Part shown: in pieces, positions 33,892-59,483 of the stretch
Layout: every line of letters starts with the position of its first letter
How positions within the stretch are numbered: position 1 is the stretch's first letter
Notes under the pieces: generated by a model
The model's input: the letters and a program-made list of their open reading frames with translations, nothing else
Database searches by the model: none
Told to the model about the DNA's origin: nothing
DNA from: Ruminococcus sp.
GTDB lineage: Bacteria; Bacillota; Clostridia; Oscillospirales; Ruminococcaceae
Assembly (NCBI GenBank): GCA_020861185.1
Contig: JAJBSV010000007.1
Coordinates: forward strand, 52,093 to 116,092
Direction: 5' to 3'
DNA length: 64,000 nt
Position numbers and translations under genes: made by a program

Positions 33892-35646
33892 TTATATGTT
33901 GAACGCTCTGATGAGCTTGCCGTGAATATCGTCGATAGCTTCAGGCTTTTCAACCTTCGGCGCATCGGGATCCAAGAGCCACGTCTTTGCATAATGAGTG
34001 TCGCTGACCTTGAACATCGGCGGCTCCTCAAGGGTGTCTATCTTAAGGCAATAGGGATTTCTCGGCGCAAACGCATCTCCGACAACCTCGTTATAAAGCG
34101 ACGGAGGCGTACCGGTGATTGAATAGAGCTTTGTATTTCTCTGTGTGAGCTGAGGGAGACTCGAAAGAAGTGCCCATGTGTAGGGATGCTTCGGGTCGTA
34201 GAATACTTCCTCAACCTTGCCGAGCTCTATAATCTGTCCGGCATAGAGTACTGCGACTCTGTCGGCTATGTTCGCAACAACTCCGAGGTCATGGGTGATG
34301 AATACGATTGTATAGTGGAACTCTTTCTGGAGATCCTTAAGAAGCTTCAGAATCTGAGCCTGAATCGTAACGTCAAGAGCGGTAGTAGGCTCGTCGCAGA
34401 TAAGAATCTTCGGCTGGCAGGAGAGGGCAATCGCGATAACGATTCTCTGTCTCATACCTCCGGAATACTGGAAGGGGTAGTCGTCGAATCTCTTCTCGGG
34501 GTTCGGAATACCGACCTTATGCATAAGCTCAAGGGCTTTTCTTCTTGCGTCAACCTCACTGCATCCCTGATGCTTGATGATGATTGATGTAATCTGCTTG
34601 CCGATGGTTATAATCGGGTTAAGAGAGGTCATCGGGTCCTGGAAGACGGTCGCGATTCTCTTACCACGAATCTGTGCCCAGTCCTGACTGAACTTGACGT
34701 TTGCAAGGTTCAGAACGCAGGTGCCGTGCAAAGCTTCCTCGGTCTCGTCGAGATACTGAACTCTGAACGCAACCGTATCGAAAACAGAGTTTCTCTGCTT
34801 GTCGTCGTTAAGGTCAACGCCGAGCTGCATAGCCTTCTTAAGGGCTTTGAGGAGCTTATTCAGGAGCGAATAGCGGTCCTTCATGCCGTATCTGCCGATT
34901 GAAAGGCAGATTTCCTTTGCAAGAACGGTGTTGCGCTCTCTTGTTTCGTCGGAGATTTCGCCGGAGATTTCCTGCTGATACTTCGACTTGAGAGCCGCCA
35001 TCTTCTCGTTATAGGTTGCGAGATAAGCAGTGTCGGCTTTGAGAGCCTTCTTGTGCTCAGCCTCGATAGACTTTGCATTCGCTCTCAAGGATTTGAGCTC
35101 TGCGTCGTATTCGTCAATCTTTGCGGAAAGCTCCTTGATCTGAGCCTTGTCCTTCTTCGAGTCGAGCGTGAGCTTGAGGTTATAGGCGTCGGTTCTGTCG
35201 GCAATAAGGTCAGCCTCTTTTGCCTTCTCCTTTTCGAGCTCATCCGAGCTCAAGCCCTCGCGCCCCTTCTTCTCGGATTCGAGATTAAGGATTTCCTTAT
35301 AGGTTTCAGCTCCCAATTCGAGCTTTGAATATTCGTCGAGCTTCTTCTTTGCGCTTGCTTCGATTCTCTTGATGTTCTTCGAAAGAGCAACGTGGGTGTC
35401 TGAAAGCTCGGGGTCGTTATAAATGATTTCGCCGCCGCTGATGTAGCCGTTCTGGTCGTTCATACCGGTGAAGCACTTTGTGAAAACAGACTTACCGGAG
35501 CCGGACTCACCGACTATCGCTATTGATTCCTCTTCGTAGATATCGAGGGAAATTCCTCTGATAGCAGTGAGGATACGTCCTCTTACCTTGAACTGGAGAT
35601 GCACATCCTTTGCGGAGAGCAACACTTTCTTCTCATTGTTTTCCAT
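33892..35646 (-). CDS. oppD: oligopeptide-type ABC ATP-binding protein (OppD-like) with ~240-aa coiled-coil insertion
   Basis: Walker A GESGSGKS near residue 47, but the Q-loop VFQDPMTSLNP is near residue 335. YSGGMRQRIVIA, LICDEPTTALD. Confidence 0.85.
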   Translation of the reverse strand: MENNEKKVLLSAKDVHLQFKVRGRILTAIRGISLDIYEEESIAIVGESGSGKSVFTKCFTGMNDQNGYISGGEIIYNDPELSDTHVALSKNIKRIEASAKKKLDEYSKLELGAETYKEILNLESEKKGREGLSSDELEKEKAKEADLIADRTDAYNLKLTLDSKKDKAQIKELSAKIDEYDAELKSLRANAKSIEAEHKKALKADTAYLATYNEKMAALKSKYQQEISGEISDETRERNTVLAKEICLSIGRYGMKDRYSLLNKLLKALKKAMQLGVDLNDDKQRNSVFDTVAFRVQYLDETEEALHGTCVLNLANVKFSQDWAQIRGKRIATVFQDPMTSLNPIITIGKQITSIIIKHQGCSEVDARRKALELMHKVGIPNPEKRFDDYPFQYSGGMRQRIVIAIALSCQPKILICDEPTTALDVTIQAQILKLLKDLQKEFHYTIVFITHDLGVVANIADRVAVLYAGQIIELGKVEEVFYDPKHPYTWALLSSLPQLTQRNTKLYSITGTPPSLYNEVVGDAFAPRNPYCLKIDTLEEPPMFKVSDTHYAKTWLLDPDAPKVEKPEAIDDIHGKLIRAFNI

Positions 35647-52704: not shown

Positions 52705-55143
52705 TTACTTGACGGTAACAGACATGTAGCTGCACGCCTTGAGGTCGGTTGAAAGGTCAGTCTGATAAGGAACTGCAACAACTCTTACCTTGTAGGTTGT
52801 GCCGGATGTGAGACCGGTGATTGTGGTCGAGGTGCCGCTTGTTACGGTAGCCTTGCACTTGTAGGTGGAGCTTGAACCCTCGGCAACATAGACCTTATAG
52901 CTGGTTGCGCCGGAAACGGCAGTCCAGGAAACGGTTATCGAGCCGCTCGAAGAGCTTGTTACTGATGTCAGGCTCGAAAGAGTTGCCGTGCTTGCTACGG
53001 GATCGGTAGCGGTGACGGTCGAGGTCTTTGTCGAGCAGGTGATGGTAACGGTGCCGGAGCTGTAGCCGGTGTCAGCTACTACATAGAAGTCATAGCTTGT
53101 GCCGTCGTTGAGACCCTTGATGGTAACAGCGGTCTTCGTGACGGTTCCTGCCTTCTTCCATGTGGAGTTAGAGGATCTCTTCCAGTAAACGGTGTAGGAA
53201 GTAGCATCGTCAGCCGCAGTCCAGGAAAGGGTAATCTTTCCGCTGTTGCCCGAAGTAGCCTTGAAGGAAGTCGGGTAGACGGAAGCGTCACTGTCGGAAG
53301 ATGAGCTGGAATCAGACCCGGTGCCGGTACCTGAGATATAGGTAATTTTGCCTACAGTTTTCAAGCCGCCGGAAGAAGTAATCGCATAGACATAAGCTAT
53401 GAAGGAAGCATTCTTTCCATAAGGAATGGTGGCGCTATTAGTAGTAACAGTCTGCGAAGAAGATCCGGTCGAGTTTACACCACCATACATAACGTAGTAA
53501 GCGGTTGCTCCACTGACCTTATCCCATGTAAGAGTGGTGCCAAGTGTAGTCTGAGAAGAAATGTAGACACCGTCGGTTTCAGTAGAAGTAGCAGTCGTGG
53601 TGTTGGTTGTGCTCGAGGACGAGCTAGAAGTGGTTGTTGCCGCGACAGTAGCAGACGCCCAAGCACCGGTTACGAGCGCAGAGCCCGTCGAATCCATAGG
53701 TATAACGTAGATTGTGACAGCGTAGGTATTAGCTACGGGAATGGTAGCGCTTGTAGCAGATGTTGTAAGTGTAGTGCCGGTTGTGTTTGAGCCAACTACA
53801 TAGTAAACAAGGTATGTGTCTGCGCCCGAGTAAGCGGTCCAAGAAATCGTCTTGTAGCTTGCATACGAATAAACGGTGCATCTGGTACCGGAAGTCGTAG
53901 TGTAAGTGGTTGTGCTCGTGCTCGAGCCGGTGACTCCTCCTATAATTGTTGTATTGCCAACAGTAGCGAGGCTGTTTCCGTTCGCATCATAAGCATAGAC
54001 ATAGATAGAGTAGCTTGTAGAAGGATAGAAGAACTCATAAGTGAATTTAGTTGCAGTGCCGTAGTAAAGTCTGGTAGAACCTGCGTATACAGCGTAGTAG
54101 GTAGCCCCGGAATAAGCACTCCAGGACAAAGTATAACTGTAAGTGGCGTTAGAAGTAATACCGTTGCTCACAACGCTTATACCACTGGTATCACTCGAGC
54201 CAGACAAGCCGTTAATAGTTCCTGTTGTTCCGGAAACGATATACGCATAGCCTATTGTAGCTGAAGTGTTGCTTGAGGTTATACCATATACATACACGGT
54301 ATACGAATGACCGGTGATAAGGCTCAGCGACTTAGAGGTACTGCTTGTTGTTGTATATCCACTGCCGCTTGAACTTGTGGAATCAACGTATCTGATGTAG
54401 TAGGAAGAATAGCTGCTCGAGCCGTTCCAGGACAAGGTATAAGTAGTTGCCCCAGTAGAAGAGCTCGAAGAACCTGCTACTACATACAAACCGGAAGCAT
54501 AGCCAGTAGTAGAACCTGAGCTGGAGCTACCTATTTTGCATGTGTCAACAGTAGTGGAAGCTCCCTCATTACCCGATTTACTCCATCCTATAAGAGATAC
54601 GGAGTAAAGAGAAGAATAAGCTACACTGATAGTAGTACCACTTGTTGCATTCTTTACCTCTGTGCCGGAATCACTGCTTGATGTCTTGTAGAGGAGAGAA
54701 TAGCTTGAATAGCTATCATCAGTCCAAGTTACCTTAACGGCGCTGTCACCCGATTGAGTAACGACAAGACCACCTGAAGTATTGCTTGATGCAGTGTAAG
54801 TTACACTCTCAGTATCCGGCAAGGTAGTTGCATAGGTTCCATCAACATATACATCAACATTGAGAAGCAAAGAGCCAGAAGCAGTGATTTCTATTTCATC
54901 TACACTGGTTGTGTCTGACTTCGTGGATGATGATGCAAGTGTCTTGGAGTTTGTCTTATCGGTGAGCGTGTAAGTGTAAGTAATCGCTGTTGCACTGGAA
55001 TCAGTGTAAGACCATTCGATTTTTACAGTGTTATCGCCGTTATCAGTGATAGACGCTGAACCTGTCGCCGCAAACACCGAGAGATTGAGCATGGAGACTG
55101 CCAGAATGAGGGCGGTTGCCAATGCTAAAAGTCTTTTAGTCAT
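52705..55143 (-). CDS. secreted Ser/Thr-rich protein with ~9 fibronectin-type-III-like repeats
   Basis: Signal peptide MTKRLLALATALILAVSMLNLSVFA. Recurring ..Y.L.W.A.SGAT.Y.VY.. modules. Extreme S/T/Y/G composition. Confidence 0.7.
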   Translation of the reverse strand: MTKRLLALATALILAVSMLNLSVFAATGSASITDNGDNTVKIEWSYTDSSATAITYTYTLTDKTNSKTLASSSTKSDTTSVDEIEITASGSLLLNVDVYVDGTYATTLPDTESVTYTASSNTSGGLVVTQSGDSAVKVTWTDDSYSSYSLLYKTSSSDSGTEVKNATSGTTISVAYSSLYSVSLIGWSKSGNEGASTTVDTCKIGSSSSGSTTGYASGLYVVAGSSSSSTGATTYTLSWNGSSSYSSYYIRYVDSTSSSGSGYTTTSSTSKSLSLITGHSYTVYVYGITSSNTSATIGYAYIVSGTTGTINGLSGSSDTSGISVVSNGITSNATYSYTLSWSAYSGATYYAVYAGSTRLYYGTATKFTYEFFYPSTSYSIYVYAYDANGNSLATVGNTTIIGGVTGSSTSTTTYTTTSGTRCTVYSYASYKTISWTAYSGADTYLVYYVVGSNTTGTTLTTSATSATIPVANTYAVTIYVIPMDSTGSALVTGAWASATVAATTTSSSSSSTTNTTTATSTETDGVYISSQTTLGTTLTWDKVSGATAYYVMYGGVNSTGSSSQTVTTNSATIPYGKNASFIAYVYAITSSGGLKTVGKITYISGTGTGSDSSSSSDSDASVYPTSFKATSGNSGKITLSWTAADDATSYTVYWKRSSNSTWKKAGTVTKTAVTIKGLNDGTSYDFYVVADTGYSSGTVTITCSTKTSTVTATDPVASTATLSSLTSVTSSSSGSITVSWTAVSGATSYKVYVAEGSSSTYKCKATVTSGTSTTITGLTSGTTYKVRVVAVPYQTDLSTDLKACSYMSVTVK

Positions 55144-56659: not shown

Positions 56660-56878
56660 ATGACCCGTTCGCAGAATAAGCTCCGAAAACAAAAGCTCCT
56701 TGCTATCGAAGCCGATATCAAGGAGATTTCTGATGCTATTGAAGTTGCCGAGAGCTGTTTTAACGAGACGACCGACAGCGACCTGATGGACGCGCTTATC
56801 TACGATCGTGCGGCTCTTGAGTCCCGTTATAACTATCTGATAAGAGAGCTCAAGACTTTGGAAGAAGTCACTCAATAA
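56660..56878 (+). CDS. DUF2508 (YaaL-like) small protein
   Basis: 72 aa from the ATG at 56660 (GAGAGG RBS). The ..DSDLMDALIYDRAALESRYNYLIRELK pattern is typical of YaaL-like proteins. Confidence 0.55.
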   Translation: MTRSQNKLRKQKLLAIEADIKEISDAIEVAESCFNETTDSDLMDALIYDRAALESRYNYLIRELKTLEEVTQ

Positions 56879-57509
56879 ACCTGCCGATGCGCTTGCGGAC
56901 GGCTTCCGCCATGGGTCCGATTGTAAGAGCCATCAGAACCGTCACGATTCCGACCGTGCCGCCGATGAGATATCCGAGAACGGCATAGCCGCCGTCCCAG
57001 AGGATACGGACAACCCGGAACGGGAGCTTTTTCTGCGCCTTGAAGATGATTTCGGGAATCGAATCATAGGGCGATGCGCCGAGCCCAACCGAGGTGTAGA
57101 CCGCAACCGAGAAGACGAATATGCAGAGTATCACAACGCAGGCGACAATCTTCTCGGGCATTGTCGTGAATGAAAAATCGGGCAAGATTAGCGTCCGAAG
57201 CCATGTCATGAAGTCGCAGGCATAGCCGACGATGAACATGTTGCAAACTGTTCCGATGCCGATGTTCTCCCTCCCCTTCCAGAAAACGAAGACGAAGAGA
57301 ACGCAGTTGATGAGCGCCTGCCAGCTCCCGAAGCTTATGCCGAGGATTTCCGCCATGGCGAGATTAACGACCGAGCAGGGGTCGGTGCCCCAAGCCAGAA
57401 GGTTCAGCCACGACACGCAAAAGCCCATCATCGTGACCGCCACGACGCAAAAGATAACACGCCGAGCCATATGCGGCTTGCGGAAGATTGATATAAGAAA
57501 GTCTTTCAT
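56868..57509 (-). CDS. YczE/YitT-like membrane protein
   Basis: 213 aa and polytopic. The G.DP..V pattern in the first loop resembles YczE-type proteins. Confidence 0.55.
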   Translation of the reverse strand: MKDFLISIFRKPHMARRVIFCVVAVTMMGFCVSWLNLLAWGTDPCSVVNLAMAEILGISFGSWQALINCVLFVFVFWKGRENIGIGTVCNMFIVGYACDFMTWLRTLILPDFSFTTMPEKIVACVVILCIFVFSVAVYTSVGLGASPYDSIPEIIFKAQKKLPFRVVRILWDGGYAVLGYLIGGTVGIVTVLMALTIGPMAEAVRKRIGRFIE

Positions 57510-57525
57510 ATTTGCAGCCCCAATA

Positions 57526-57999
57526 CTATACCGTCGTTAATTCTTTTGACTCCTGGAATTCCTTCAGCCGTTCCAAGAGCAAATCAATATCCGTGCAATA
57601 ATTCGGACGTAGCCCGCTTTCGTATGCAGTCAGATAGGATTGACACTCAGAAACTATTCTGCTTTCGTTGTTGTCAATCAGATTTATGACTGCCGTCTGA
57701 TATTTACCGCTACCCATATTGAATTTATAAGTGTATTTTTCATCAATCGGAAACATCTTTATGTAGTGAATGCCGTGACGATGTCCAAGCTTGGTTGTTT
57801 TTCGGGGAGGCAAGGCAAAAAATTGTGACTTTGGGACAAATGAAGGAATATTTGAACGCAACGGAACAGCGAAAGTATGATATTCACCTTTATACTTCAA
57901 TCTGACAATCAAAACGCAGGGACGGGTGTGCTTGCGGAGCACCTGCTCATCTTCGTAATACACGTCTAAGAGCTCTTCGCTTATTGTCACTATCCTCAT
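57526..57999 (-). CDS. ToxN/AbiQ-like endoribonuclease toxin (type III TA)
   Basis: 157 aa from the ATG at 57999 (GAAGGAAAG RBS). RPCVLIVRLKYKGEYHTFAVPLRSN resembles the ToxN/AbiQ RP..G.V......Y.APL(T/S)S core. C-terminal CTDIDLLLERL resembles CNF.LLEEK. Context is tandem RNA repeats plus a terminator upstream. Confidence 0.65.
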   Translation of the reverse strand: MRIVTISEELLDVYYEDEQVLRKHTRPCVLIVRLKYKGEYHTFAVPLRSNIPSFVPKSQFFALPPRKTTKLGHRHGIHYIKMFPIDEKYTYKFNMGSGKYQTAVINLIDNNESRIVSECQSYLTAYESGLRPNYCTDIDLLLERLKEFQESKELTTV

Positions 58000-58014
58000 T
58001 TTAACACTTTCCTT

Positions 58015-58046
58015 CTCAAAATCAAAGCCCACCAAAAAGGTAGGCT
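58015..58046 (-). terminator. intrinsic terminator between the RNA repeats and the toxin ORF
   Basis: Minus strand: AGCCTACC-ttttt-GGTGGGCT followed by TTGATTTTGAG. Confidence 0.7.
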
Positions 58047-58049
58047 CGA

Positions 58050-58430
58050 TTCACATACAAATGAGTGATATTCTACGCGATTTTGCTCGCACCCCGTCAC
58101 CCCGGAGGCATTAGCAGTAGTAACTGCTTCACACAAGTGGGTAATATTCTACGCTTTCTGAAATCAGATTGCATCCCGTTACCCGCGGAGATATTATCAG
58201 TTACGGAGTAACTGATTCACACAAGTGAGTGATATTCTACACAGCCCGACAAAGCGGACCGGCTTGCAAGCAAACCGTTCCCCGTCACTCACGGAGGCTA
58301 AACATGACTACACCCAAAAGGGGAGCCGTACAAGGATGATATTTTGCGTGGTTTGAAGCAACCACACCCCGTCACCTACGGAGGCTAAACATATTCGCAA
58401 GCGAATTGTTCACTGCGTGATGTCTCCATC
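58050..58430 (-). ncRNA. tandem composite RNA repeats (4 units of 78-110 nt plus a partial unit), putative type III antitoxin
   Basis: Unit boundaries on plus coordinates: 58050, 58128, 58216, ~58326 and 58409. Conserved cores (minus strand): GTAGAATATCACTCACTTGTGTGAA and CCTCCG-N7-CGGGG. Confidence 0.7.
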
Positions 58431-58440
58431 CCGCACTATT

Positions 58441-58469
58441 ATTATACACTATGCGTCTGAAAAATGCAA
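58441..58469 (-). promoter_or_regulatory. promoter of the repeat array / toxin unit
   Basis: Minus strand: TTGCAT (58469..58464) - 17 nt - TATAAT (58446..58441). Confidence 0.6.
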
Positions 58470-58493
58470 TACCTTAATCAAAAAATATTGCAA

Positions 58494-59483
58494 TCACACT
58501 TTTGCCAAGGTTGCCGCCATAACCGCCTTGATAGTGTGCATACGGTTTTCAGCCTCCTGGAAGACAGCGGACTTCGGGCTTTCGAAGACCTCGTCGGTGA
58601 CCTCCATGCAGTCGATGCCGAACTTCTCGTTTATCAGCTTGCCGGTGGTGGTCTTCAAATCGTGGAAGGACGGCAGGCAGTGCATGAATACAGCGTTGTC
58701 GGTGGCGTCCATGAGCTTACTGTTCACCTGATAGGGCGACAGATCGGCGATTCTCTCCGCCCAGACCTCGTCCGGCTCGCCCATCGAAACCCACACGTCG
58801 GTATAGACGACGTTCTGGTTTTTAGCCGCCTCGGCAGGGTCTTCCGCCAGAGTGATGCTTCCGCCGCTCTCTTTTGCGAGCTCTTCGCAGGTTTTAACGA
58901 GCTCAGCATTAGGGAAGTATTTTGCGGGAGCACAGGCGGTGAAGTTCAGACCCATCTTGGCGCAACCGACCATAAGCGAGTTGCCCATGTTATACCTTGC
59001 GTCGCCCATATAGAGGAAATTGATGCCCTTCAGGTGCCCGTAAATCTCCTTGATAGTCAGGAAGTCGGCAAGAATCTGCGTCGGGTGGAACTCGTTTGTC
59101 AAGCCGTTCCAGACGGGGACATCGGAATACTTTGCGAGCTCCTCGACAATCTCCTGCCCGTAGCCGCGGTATTCGATTCCGTCAAACATCGAGCTAAGCA
59201 CTCTTGCCGTGTCGGCGATGCTTTCTTTCTTGCCTATCTGCGAGCCCGACGGGTCGAGATATGTGCAACCCATGCCCAAATCATGCGCCGCTACTTCAAA
59301 AGAGCAACGGGTGCGGGTGCTCGTCTTCTCAAAGATGAGGGCGACGTTCTTGCCCTCGCAGAGCTTGTGCGCAACGCCGGCTTTTTTCTTCGCCTTGAGG
59401 GTCGCCGCAAGCTCGATAAGCCCTTCTATTTCATCGGGAGTGAAGTCAAGAAGCTTCAGAAAATCCCGTCCGTAAAGATTCAT
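58494..59483 (-). CDS. argF: ornithine carbamoyltransferase
   Basis: [23 protein letters not shown] motifs. Confidence 0.92.

Follow-up and report, generated by a model that had tools for sequence, protein, structure and literature searches.

Type III toxin-antitoxin (TA) systems, in which a protein toxin is paired with an RNA antitoxin, have been divided since 2012 into three families, ToxIN, CptIN, and TenpIN, of which TenpIN is the least understood. For ToxIN the mechanism is established, with RNA processing at A-rich sites and the formation of cyclic RNA-protein assemblies. Published repeat lengths are 31–62 nucleotides (nt) for toxI, 40–48 nt for cptI, and 39–57 nt for tenpI (Blower 2012, Table 2), and ToxI units, with a mean of 38 nt, are nearly identical to one another and occur in 2–5.6 copies (Blower 2012). 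An alignment of TenpI was not achieved in that survey, and the TenpI pseudoknots of a later one are predictions (Nadig 2025); examples of TenpIN come from Photorhabdus luminescens TT01 and from S. aureus pVRSA (Blower 2012; Nadig 2025). Here we analyze a locus on the minus strand of a 64,000-nt stretch of a Ruminococcus sp. genome assembly, hereafter the window, in which a promoter, an array of RNA units, a terminator, and a gene for a 157-residue protein follow one another. We consider it likely that the locus is a type III TA module of a divergent, unannotated TenpIN-like clade, whose toxicity, RNA processing, and neutralization would follow the precedent of the described systems. The evidence consists of a predicted ribonuclease (RNase) fold, a pseudoknotted RNA, the near-obligate linkage of the two, and the layout of promoter, RNA, terminator, and gene.

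The protein (P0001) is identical to a deposited "hypothetical protein" of a Ruminococcus sp. metagenome-assembled genome. A mechanical list of open reading frames (ORFs) gives a 169-residue version from an upstream TTG; the 157-residue form is that of the deposited protein and has the start of all homologs. Sequence searches of the Protein Data Bank (PDB), with the single sequence and with a profile, gave no relevant match, solved ToxN and AbiQ chains included, and only a fold search succeeded. An AlphaFold model based on a 44-sequence alignment (pLDDT 89.7, pTM 0.84) was compared with the PDB by Foldseek, and the top five matches were all type III toxins (TM 0.63–0.69, probability 1.00), namely ToxN 2xd0 (TM 0.69), E. 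coli ToxN 7d8o, B. thuringiensis ToxN 4ato, AbiQ 4glk, and CptN 4rmo; MazF came next, with E > 0.1. The model thus supports a ToxN/AbiQ/CptN RNase fold for the toxin. A scan of NCBIfam with P0001 gave one meaningful match, to the TenpIN toxin profile NF047358.1 (E 4.5e-9). The same profile was matched by all 44 aligned family members (best E 2.6e-14), and the CptIN profile NF047359.1 was matched weakly by six of the 44 (best E 1.5e-5) and not at all by P0001.

Residues invariant in the family are D17, R26-P27, F43-A44-x-P46-x-R48-S49-N50, H75-G76-x-H78-Y79-x-K81, and D139, and the window ORF is intact and has every one of them. Their spacing follows the D..R.Y..P.R..G.D..K signature of TenpN, which is made up of D28, R36, Y38, P53, R55, G75, D77, and K80 (Nadig 2025). 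In addition, A44-x-P46-L47-x-S49 appears, in a motif-level alignment made without superposition, to parallel the active-site stretch A49-P50-L51-T52-S53 of ToxN.

The toxin family is large and widespread. It comprises 396 clusters at 90% identity (word-indexed search) and 337 clusters at 50% identity (exhaustive search), and it is found on 406 metagenome contigs and in at least 542 species genomes, with hosts that include Oscillospiraceae, Lachnospiraceae, Collinsella, Erysipelotrichaceae, Selenomonadaceae, Mogibacterium, and one spirochaete. Relatives of 31–35% identity, labelled "hypothetical" where annotated, lie on conjugative Enterococcus faecalis plasmids and on Apilactobacillus plasmids. 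One of these, a genetically tractable, 33%-identical homolog annotated as "hypothetical" on the E. faecalis conjugative plasmid NZ_CP144765.1 (about 34020–34270, our L258:1250–1500), sits between DNA methyltransferase and resolvase genes and is preceded by B-A-B units (of the two kinds defined below) with a 98-nt period and then by a terminator. Complete loci are also present on viral contigs, and occurrence there and on conjugative plasmids is expected of TA or abortive-infection modules. A tblastn search of isolated phage genomes with the toxin gave no match.

Across the family the order is promoter, leader hairpin, short unit A, longer unit B, terminator, ribosome-binding site (RBS), and gene. 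The units are of two structural kinds. Unit A, exemplified by CCGG-UCAUCA-CGGC-UAGAAUAU-GAUGA-ACGUGUAUG, is without a second hairpin (P2), whereas unit B has one and conforms to UUUARC-CUCCG-N7-CGGGG-[P2, a short hairpin]-UAGAAUAU-N6-7-AC-N-UGUA, in which CUCCG and CGGGG form the first stem (P1). The linkage of protein and RNA is nearly complete: counting protein-anchored loci with enough upstream sequence (n = 156), we found at least one B unit, ending 32–101 nt (median, 55 nt) ahead of the start codon, in 155. The sole locus without an upstream RNA unit (L200:740–1000) has lost its RNA, and a deletion or insertion event may have been responsible. Upstream in that locus is a short element, GUACUUCAUAGGGUCAGACCC, which is also found upstream of promoters in L017 and L028. 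The usual complement is one A and one B unit, with a single complete B, and copy number in the family is two to four; L008 has a classic tandem array (57 nt × 3.1 copies, 96% identity).

This layout is also what would be expected if the RNA were not a trans-acting antitoxin and served instead as a cis-acting leader, such as a riboswitch-like or protein-binding attenuator, that governs read-through of the terminator. An intrinsic terminator and a gene come immediately after an H-type pseudoknot, always in cis, and only one complete B unit is present in most loci. A single sensor, however, would have no need of the three or four copies found in some lineages, and many contigs carry units with no family gene downstream. 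Moreover, the terminator and pseudoknot strands do not overlap, so that no alternative pairing is evident, and the downstream protein shares its fold with RNases known to bind such RNAs. We therefore regard a leader function as highly improbable.

The locus in the window represents a distinct lineage of the family, formed by the window and five Oscillospiraceae relatives (L001–L004 and L177). Its features, in the order of transcription, are as follows.

58464–58469, minus strand: −35-like hexamer TTGCAT (read from the sequence; unchanged in the six window-lineage loci).
58441–58446, minus strand: −10 hexamer TATAAT, separated from the −35 by a 17-nt spacer (unchanged in the six window-lineage loci).
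58414–58435, minus strand: leader hairpin 1, UGCGGGAUG-GAGA-CAUCACGCA, with one mismatch (sequence read and predicted fold).
58393–58406, minus strand: leader hairpin 2, AUUCGC-UU-GCGAAU, in the place that a short A-type pseudoknot unit occupies in other loci (sequence, relatives, and predicted fold).
58326–58392, minus strand: RNA unit 1, B-type (covariance model, 42.9 bits, E 2.5e-7).
58306–58325, minus strand: spacer 1, with the small hairpin CCCC-UUUU-GGGU (sequence, relatives, and predicted fold).
58217–58305, minus strand: RNA unit 2, B-type (covariance model, 59.4 bits, E 4e-11).
58195–58216, minus strand: spacer 2 hairpin, UCAGUUAC-UCC-GUAACUGA (sequence read and predicted fold).
58129–58194, minus strand: RNA unit 3, B-type (covariance model, 30.5 bits, E 1.7e-4).
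58112–58128, minus strand: spacer 3 hairpin, GCAG-UUACUA-CUGC (sequence read and predicted fold).
58053–58111, minus strand: RNA unit 4, B-type (covariance model, 44.4 bits, E 1.2e-7).
58015–58047, minus strand: intrinsic terminator separating the RNA array from the toxin gene (terminator scan; hairpin at 58047–58025 followed by a T-run, 9-base-pair [bp] stem with five G-C pairs).
58010–58014, minus strand: RBS AAGGA, 10 nt ahead of the ATG (read from the sequence).
57526–57999, minus strand: gene for the putative ToxN-fold, TenpN-like endoribonuclease toxin of 157 residues (P0001), with its ATG at 57999 and its stop at 57526.

A consensus promoter scan of the window did not call the TTGCAT...TATAAT promoter, because TTGCAT agrees with TTGACA at three of six positions. 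Hexamers of the TTGCAT/TTGCTA type nevertheless stand at the equivalent position in many other family loci, and a TATAAT or TATACT −10 is kept across the family, about 6–8 nt ahead of the leader hairpin. A short leader hairpin likewise opens the RNA region in other family loci, and a terminator hairpin is found at the equivalent place in essentially all of them.

The units of the window were recognized with a covariance model, R1, built from 26 units of other loci, with window-lineage sequences excluded. Searched against the entire 64 kb, R1 gave exactly four matches, all on the minus strand and all in the array (58392–58053), with start-to-start spacings of 87, 111, and 83 nt. Tandem Repeats Finder reported no repeats in the window, the units being too diverged for it and a covariance model being required, and an exact-seed repeat finder recovered the shared cores and nothing more. 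The predicted fold of the array was better than that of 100 of 100 shuffled sequences (z = −3.99). The E-values obtained with R1, together with the covariation controls described below, rule out a chance origin of the units. The core B unit is 57–61 nt long, which places it at the upper end of the lengths published for TenpI, and the 83–111-nt spacing of the window lineage is due to inserted hairpins.

These results bear on an initial annotation of the window, which had placed a promoter, an RNA array, a terminator, an RBS, and an ORF on the minus strand; each was found at the coordinates it had given. Building a covariance model from homologous arrays had been proposed there, and R1, which is such a model, picked out precisely the window's four units. 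The description of the repeats as imperfect was borne out, in that R1 detects all four and Tandem Repeats Finder none. Of the repeat sizes proposed (78, 88, ~110, and ~83 nt), the last three agree with the R1 spacing, and the "78" is accounted for by the last unit, measured as far as the terminator. The statement that described type III repeats are roughly 35–45 nt long was too narrow in light of the published ranges cited above.

Every unit of the window can form an H-type pseudoknot between the loop of P1 and a strand downstream of the core. In unit 1, P1 is CUCCG/CGGGG, the loop is UAGGUGA, and P2 is GUGGUU/AACCAC, whose pairing is maintained despite base changes in L002 and L004. Unit 2 has a P2 enlarged to about 40 nt and pairs UGAGUGA with UCACUCA over 7 bp, unit 3 (P1, UCCG/CGGG) pairs the loop CGGGUAA with UUACCC, and unit 4 pairs a 6-nt loop, GGGUGA, with UCACUC, one of the pairs being G-U. 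The four loop/core complementarities listed in the initial annotation, including the bulged U of unit 1 (AGGUGA × UCA(u)CCU) and the G-U of unit 4, were thus exact, and the pseudoknot it had assigned to every unit is backed by compensatory changes in homologous units. To score these changes we aligned B units as matches to a model that omits the pseudoknot, so that the alignment was not fitted to it. Among 59 distinct homologous sequences, the six pairs that join the loop of P1 to the strand following UAGAAUA contained no unpaired cells, and two-sided changes were seen at five of the six (for example, C-G 31, U-A 27, and G-C 1 at one pair). When the 3' partners were shifted by 1–3 columns as a control, overall pairing fell from 93.5% to 36–51%. 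The seed alignment gave a similar covariation picture. In A units all six pseudoknot pairs were 100% paired and all six showed double changes. P2 covaried at three of four pairs, and P1, being nearly invariant, is neutral as to structure, neither for nor against. The H-type pseudoknot of the units is therefore supported by compensatory changes.

The window lineage departs from most of the family in having no A unit. Two leader hairpins take its place, followed by three or four B units with hairpin spacers. Whole units have been gained or lost: the window and L002 have units 1–4, L001 is without unit 1, and L003, L004, and L177 are without unit 4. The spacer and P2 hairpins retain their pairing through differing sequences. 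In L002, for example, spacer 2 forms the same hairpin from different letters (UACAAUUGC-UU-GCAAUUGUA), and spacer 3 is a longer hairpin of different sequence at the equivalent position. In all six genomes the locus lies between argF and a gene for a 213-residue membrane protein (window 56868–59483); identity between the genomes is 66–90% for the toxin, 94–97% for argF, and 84–91% for the membrane protein. Farther away, 2.4 kb from the locus, is a gene (window 52705–55143, minus strand) for an 812-residue Ser/Thr-rich secreted protein with many similar repeats of roughly 90 residues, which appears to be unrelated to the TA locus.

By analogy with ToxIN and CptIN, a type III module of this kind would work as follows. 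A single promoter would give rise to a transcript of the array of pseudoknot units, and the terminator would pass only part of the transcripts into the gene for the ToxN-fold endoribonuclease, so that the RNA would be in excess. The enzyme would cleave the precursor at conserved single-stranded junctions. In most of the family the junctions read ...AC-N-UGUA / UGUUUARC..., and in the window lineage they consist of UUGU(G/A)UGAA and a spacer hairpin. The AC-N-UGUA / UGUUUARC junction is common to A-B and B-B borders, and only ...UGUA remains after the last unit, which suggests a putative toxin cleavage site at or directly after UGUA. In each unit so released, the P1 hairpin CUCCG/CGGGG would be followed by a variable P2 hairpin and by UAGAAUA, an A-rich linker, and the loop of P1 would pair with the 3' strand in a pseudoknot of 6–7 bp. 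The tails would hold the unit on the enzyme, with the active site blocked. Were transcription to stop or the RNA to be degraded, for instance when a phage infects the cell or the element is lost, free toxin would cut cellular or phage RNA. Cleavage by the toxin, its site, the neutralization, and the trigger are modelled in this scheme on ToxIN and CptIN.

RNA units are also found apart from the toxin. Searching viral contigs for the pattern P1 plus UAGAAUAU gave 96 loci, and a stricter regular expression recovered a unit in 84 of them, 75 of which had at least five pseudoknot pairs. A family toxin lay downstream of 15 of these 75 units, and 52 had room for one and none; the 52 amount to about 16 distinct sequences. 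A hidden Markov model search of all ORFs within 900 nt of the toxin-less viral units revealed no distant family toxin. Single B units with an intact pseudoknot and no family toxin in the fetched stretch around them, most of which retain the UGUA 3' tail, include one beside a tyrosine integrase gene (L081:9870–9960), which is identical on 37 viral contigs, another beside a tyrosine integrase gene (L106:9681–9745), one flanked by a tRNA gene and a large terminase gene (L092:4570–4636), and one ahead of a tail-protein gene (L128:2589–2650). Directly upstream of the first of these (L081:8555–9859) are ORFs of 140, 146, and 155 residues that by eye resemble a HigB-like, HigA-like, and SecB-like TA-chaperone set; Pfam confirmed only a helix-turn-helix domain (HTH_3) in the 146-residue product. 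A different arrangement is seen at L087:3400–3810 (and L171:700–1100), where a promoter with an A + B array and no toxin gene of its own lies directly upstream of a CptIN-like locus. That locus has its own promoter, different repeats of about 45 nt, a terminator, and a 167-residue CptIN-like toxin (NCBIfam CptIN, 50 bits), so that two distinct type III RNA arrays stand in tandem and only the second is accompanied by a toxin gene.

Because many units stand without a toxin gene, the RNA may do something that does not involve the toxin. The protein could be a dedicated processing enzyme or partner for a small RNA that acts elsewhere, for example in competition between elements or in regulation, rather than the toxin of a growth-arresting TA system. 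Single units without the protein are indeed frequent on phage and mobile-element contigs, and the site of the window lineage, between argF and the membrane-protein gene, is chromosomal and stable, with no recognizable mobile element. Yet every solved structural relative of the protein is a TA or abortive-infection toxin, the operon layout is that of type III, the toxin diverges faster than the genes beside it, and relatives are found on conjugative plasmids next to methyltransferase and resolvase genes. On balance we think a dedicated partner RNase quite unlikely and prefer a toxin neutralized by its RNA.

The toxin-less viral units themselves are possibly phage-borne antitoxin decoys, attachment sites, or remnants. 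Phage PhiTE escapes by means of a laboratory-evolved pseudo-ToxI (PMC3475682), and decoys would be a natural and widespread counterpart of that escape; RNA-based anti-defense would then become testable in gut bacteria. More tentatively, the antitoxin might be built from two distinct pseudoknots, A and B, in an asymmetric assembly that would differ from the rings of like repeats in ToxIN and CptIN, and phages and integrative elements might on repeated occasions have acquired single B units as toxin-less decoys. We offer this combined proposal as a conjecture, with the odds somewhat against it.

Several observations weigh against assigning the locus to a type III, TenpIN-like system. A Pfam scan of the 157-residue protein gave no family at E ≤ 10 and hence no ToxN or AbiQ model, and PADLOC gave nothing credible (its PDC-M01B match, at E 0.018, was far below threshold and was taken as chance). 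The catalytic Lys55 of ToxN has no obvious counterpart at equivalent spacing in the family. P0001 scores 36.7 bits against the curated TenpIN cut-off of 90 bits for NF047358.1 and so fails it, and no family member scanned reaches 90 bits. That cut-off is narrow, since the original member S. aureus pVRSA TenpN, with 63.5 bits, also fails it. A profile–profile comparison (hhalign) of the family with the S. aureus TenpN group was weak (E 0.004 over only 48 residues), as was the test itself, because the search from S. aureus TenpN yielded only the 12 close staphylococcal relatives that make up that group. As to the RNA, most loci have two dissimilar units and so correspond only loosely to the "tandem repeat" of Blower (2012), many units are without any toxin gene, and unit 1 of the window has a degenerate core (CAAAAUAU) and a bulged pseudoknot 3' strand, UCA(U)CCU.

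The last of these points raises the question of whether the window copy is decaying or partly inactive within a family that is functional overall. The state of unit 1 would fit such a view, as would the weakened P1 (UCCG/CGGG) and lowest score (30.5 bits) of unit 3 and the gain and loss of whole units among close relatives. The toxin ORF, however, is intact with all family-invariant residues, and conservation across six genomes is good for the promoter, the terminator, and units 2 and 4. Moreover, the "defects" of units 1 and 3 are themselves retained in these genomes, as constraint would predict. We see very little chance, therefore, that the copy is in decay.

Our preferred reading remains that of a type III TA module. 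The initial annotation had reached the same view, and every element of it open to computation has been found: fold, profile, layout in 155 of 156 loci, and pseudoknot. Its comparison of the protein with ToxN and AbiQ also held up, the predicted structure matching ToxN, AbiQ, and CptN best and the similarity to the TenpIN profile being significant, if below threshold. The suggestion of a new or strongly derived family was a fair one, as Pfam, PADLOC, and Rfam are blank and R1 misses S. aureus TenpI; a qualification is that the core unit is at the top of the TenpI range and that the 83–111-nt spacing comes from inserted hairpins.

Both components are invisible to Pfam, PADLOC, and Rfam, and the Prokaryotic Genome Annotation Pipeline labels the protein "hypothetical." With Rfam 15, covariance models run on the window and three other loci gave only chance-level matches, far under their gathering scores; PtaRNA1, STnc370, and others were rejected for the array on this account. 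Such loci escape screens that depend on repeat finders, the units being heterotypic. In the literature covered, to which the supplementary lists of both TenpIN surveys (Blower 2012; Nadig 2025) do not belong, we found no description of the clade or motif and no aligned TenpI structure. What emerges is a clade of large size (no fewer than 542 species genomes and 337 clusters at 50% identity, extending to conjugative plasmids of E. faecalis) with an alignable RNA whose pseudoknot is shown by covariation. From it come a first consensus of the architecture, the junctions at which processing probably takes place, and a covariance model ready for use.

Finally, we compare the clade with each of the described families. 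ToxIN and AbiQ-antiQ (Pectobacterium atrosepticum pECA1039, E. coli, B. thuringiensis, and Lactococcus) provide the best structural matches (TM 0.63–0.69) and share the A-x-P-L-x-S active-site strand motif and the operon logic. In contrast, they have no sequence-profile similarity to the present toxin, and their junctions are AAAU-like whereas those of the present family are U/G-rich (UGUAUGUUUA). CptIN (Eubacterium rectale and Coprococcus catus; PDB 4rmo) has the same fold (TM 0.63) and gut Firmicutes hosts, and CptI units, too, are H-type pseudoknots with A-rich tertiary contacts, but the CptI repeats are 40–48 nt long and nearly identical. That the two systems are distinct also follows from L087, where a CptIN-like locus with its own repeats lies beside a toxin-less array of the present family.

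TenpIN provides the sole meaningful sequence-profile match of the window toxin, and the residue pattern D..RP..P.R..G.x..K appears common to both. The RNAs resemble each other in part: both systems have few (about two), long, often non-identical pseudoknot units with an A-rich linker (for TenpI, Nadig 2025), the 57-nt unit of L008 is as long as the longest TenpI repeats, and both follow the layout of promoter, RNA, terminator, and toxin. On the other side, the present clade lies wholly below the curated cut-off (as does pVRSA TenpN), it has A and B structural kinds of unit, and the spacer hairpins of the window lineage bring the spacing to 83–111 nt, beyond any published range. R1 did not detect S. 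aureus TenpI, with its 51-nt repeats, and a walk from distant members toward bona fide TenpN gave ten outliers, all under both the TenpIN and the CptIN cut-offs. By eye, the order P1, AGAUAU, A-rich stretch, and pseudoknot strand is also present in the S. aureus TenpI repeats, which we mention as a lead only. We conclude that the locus is best placed in a divergent clade, TenpIN-like and heterotypic in its RNA architecture, of which the window carries an expanded form.

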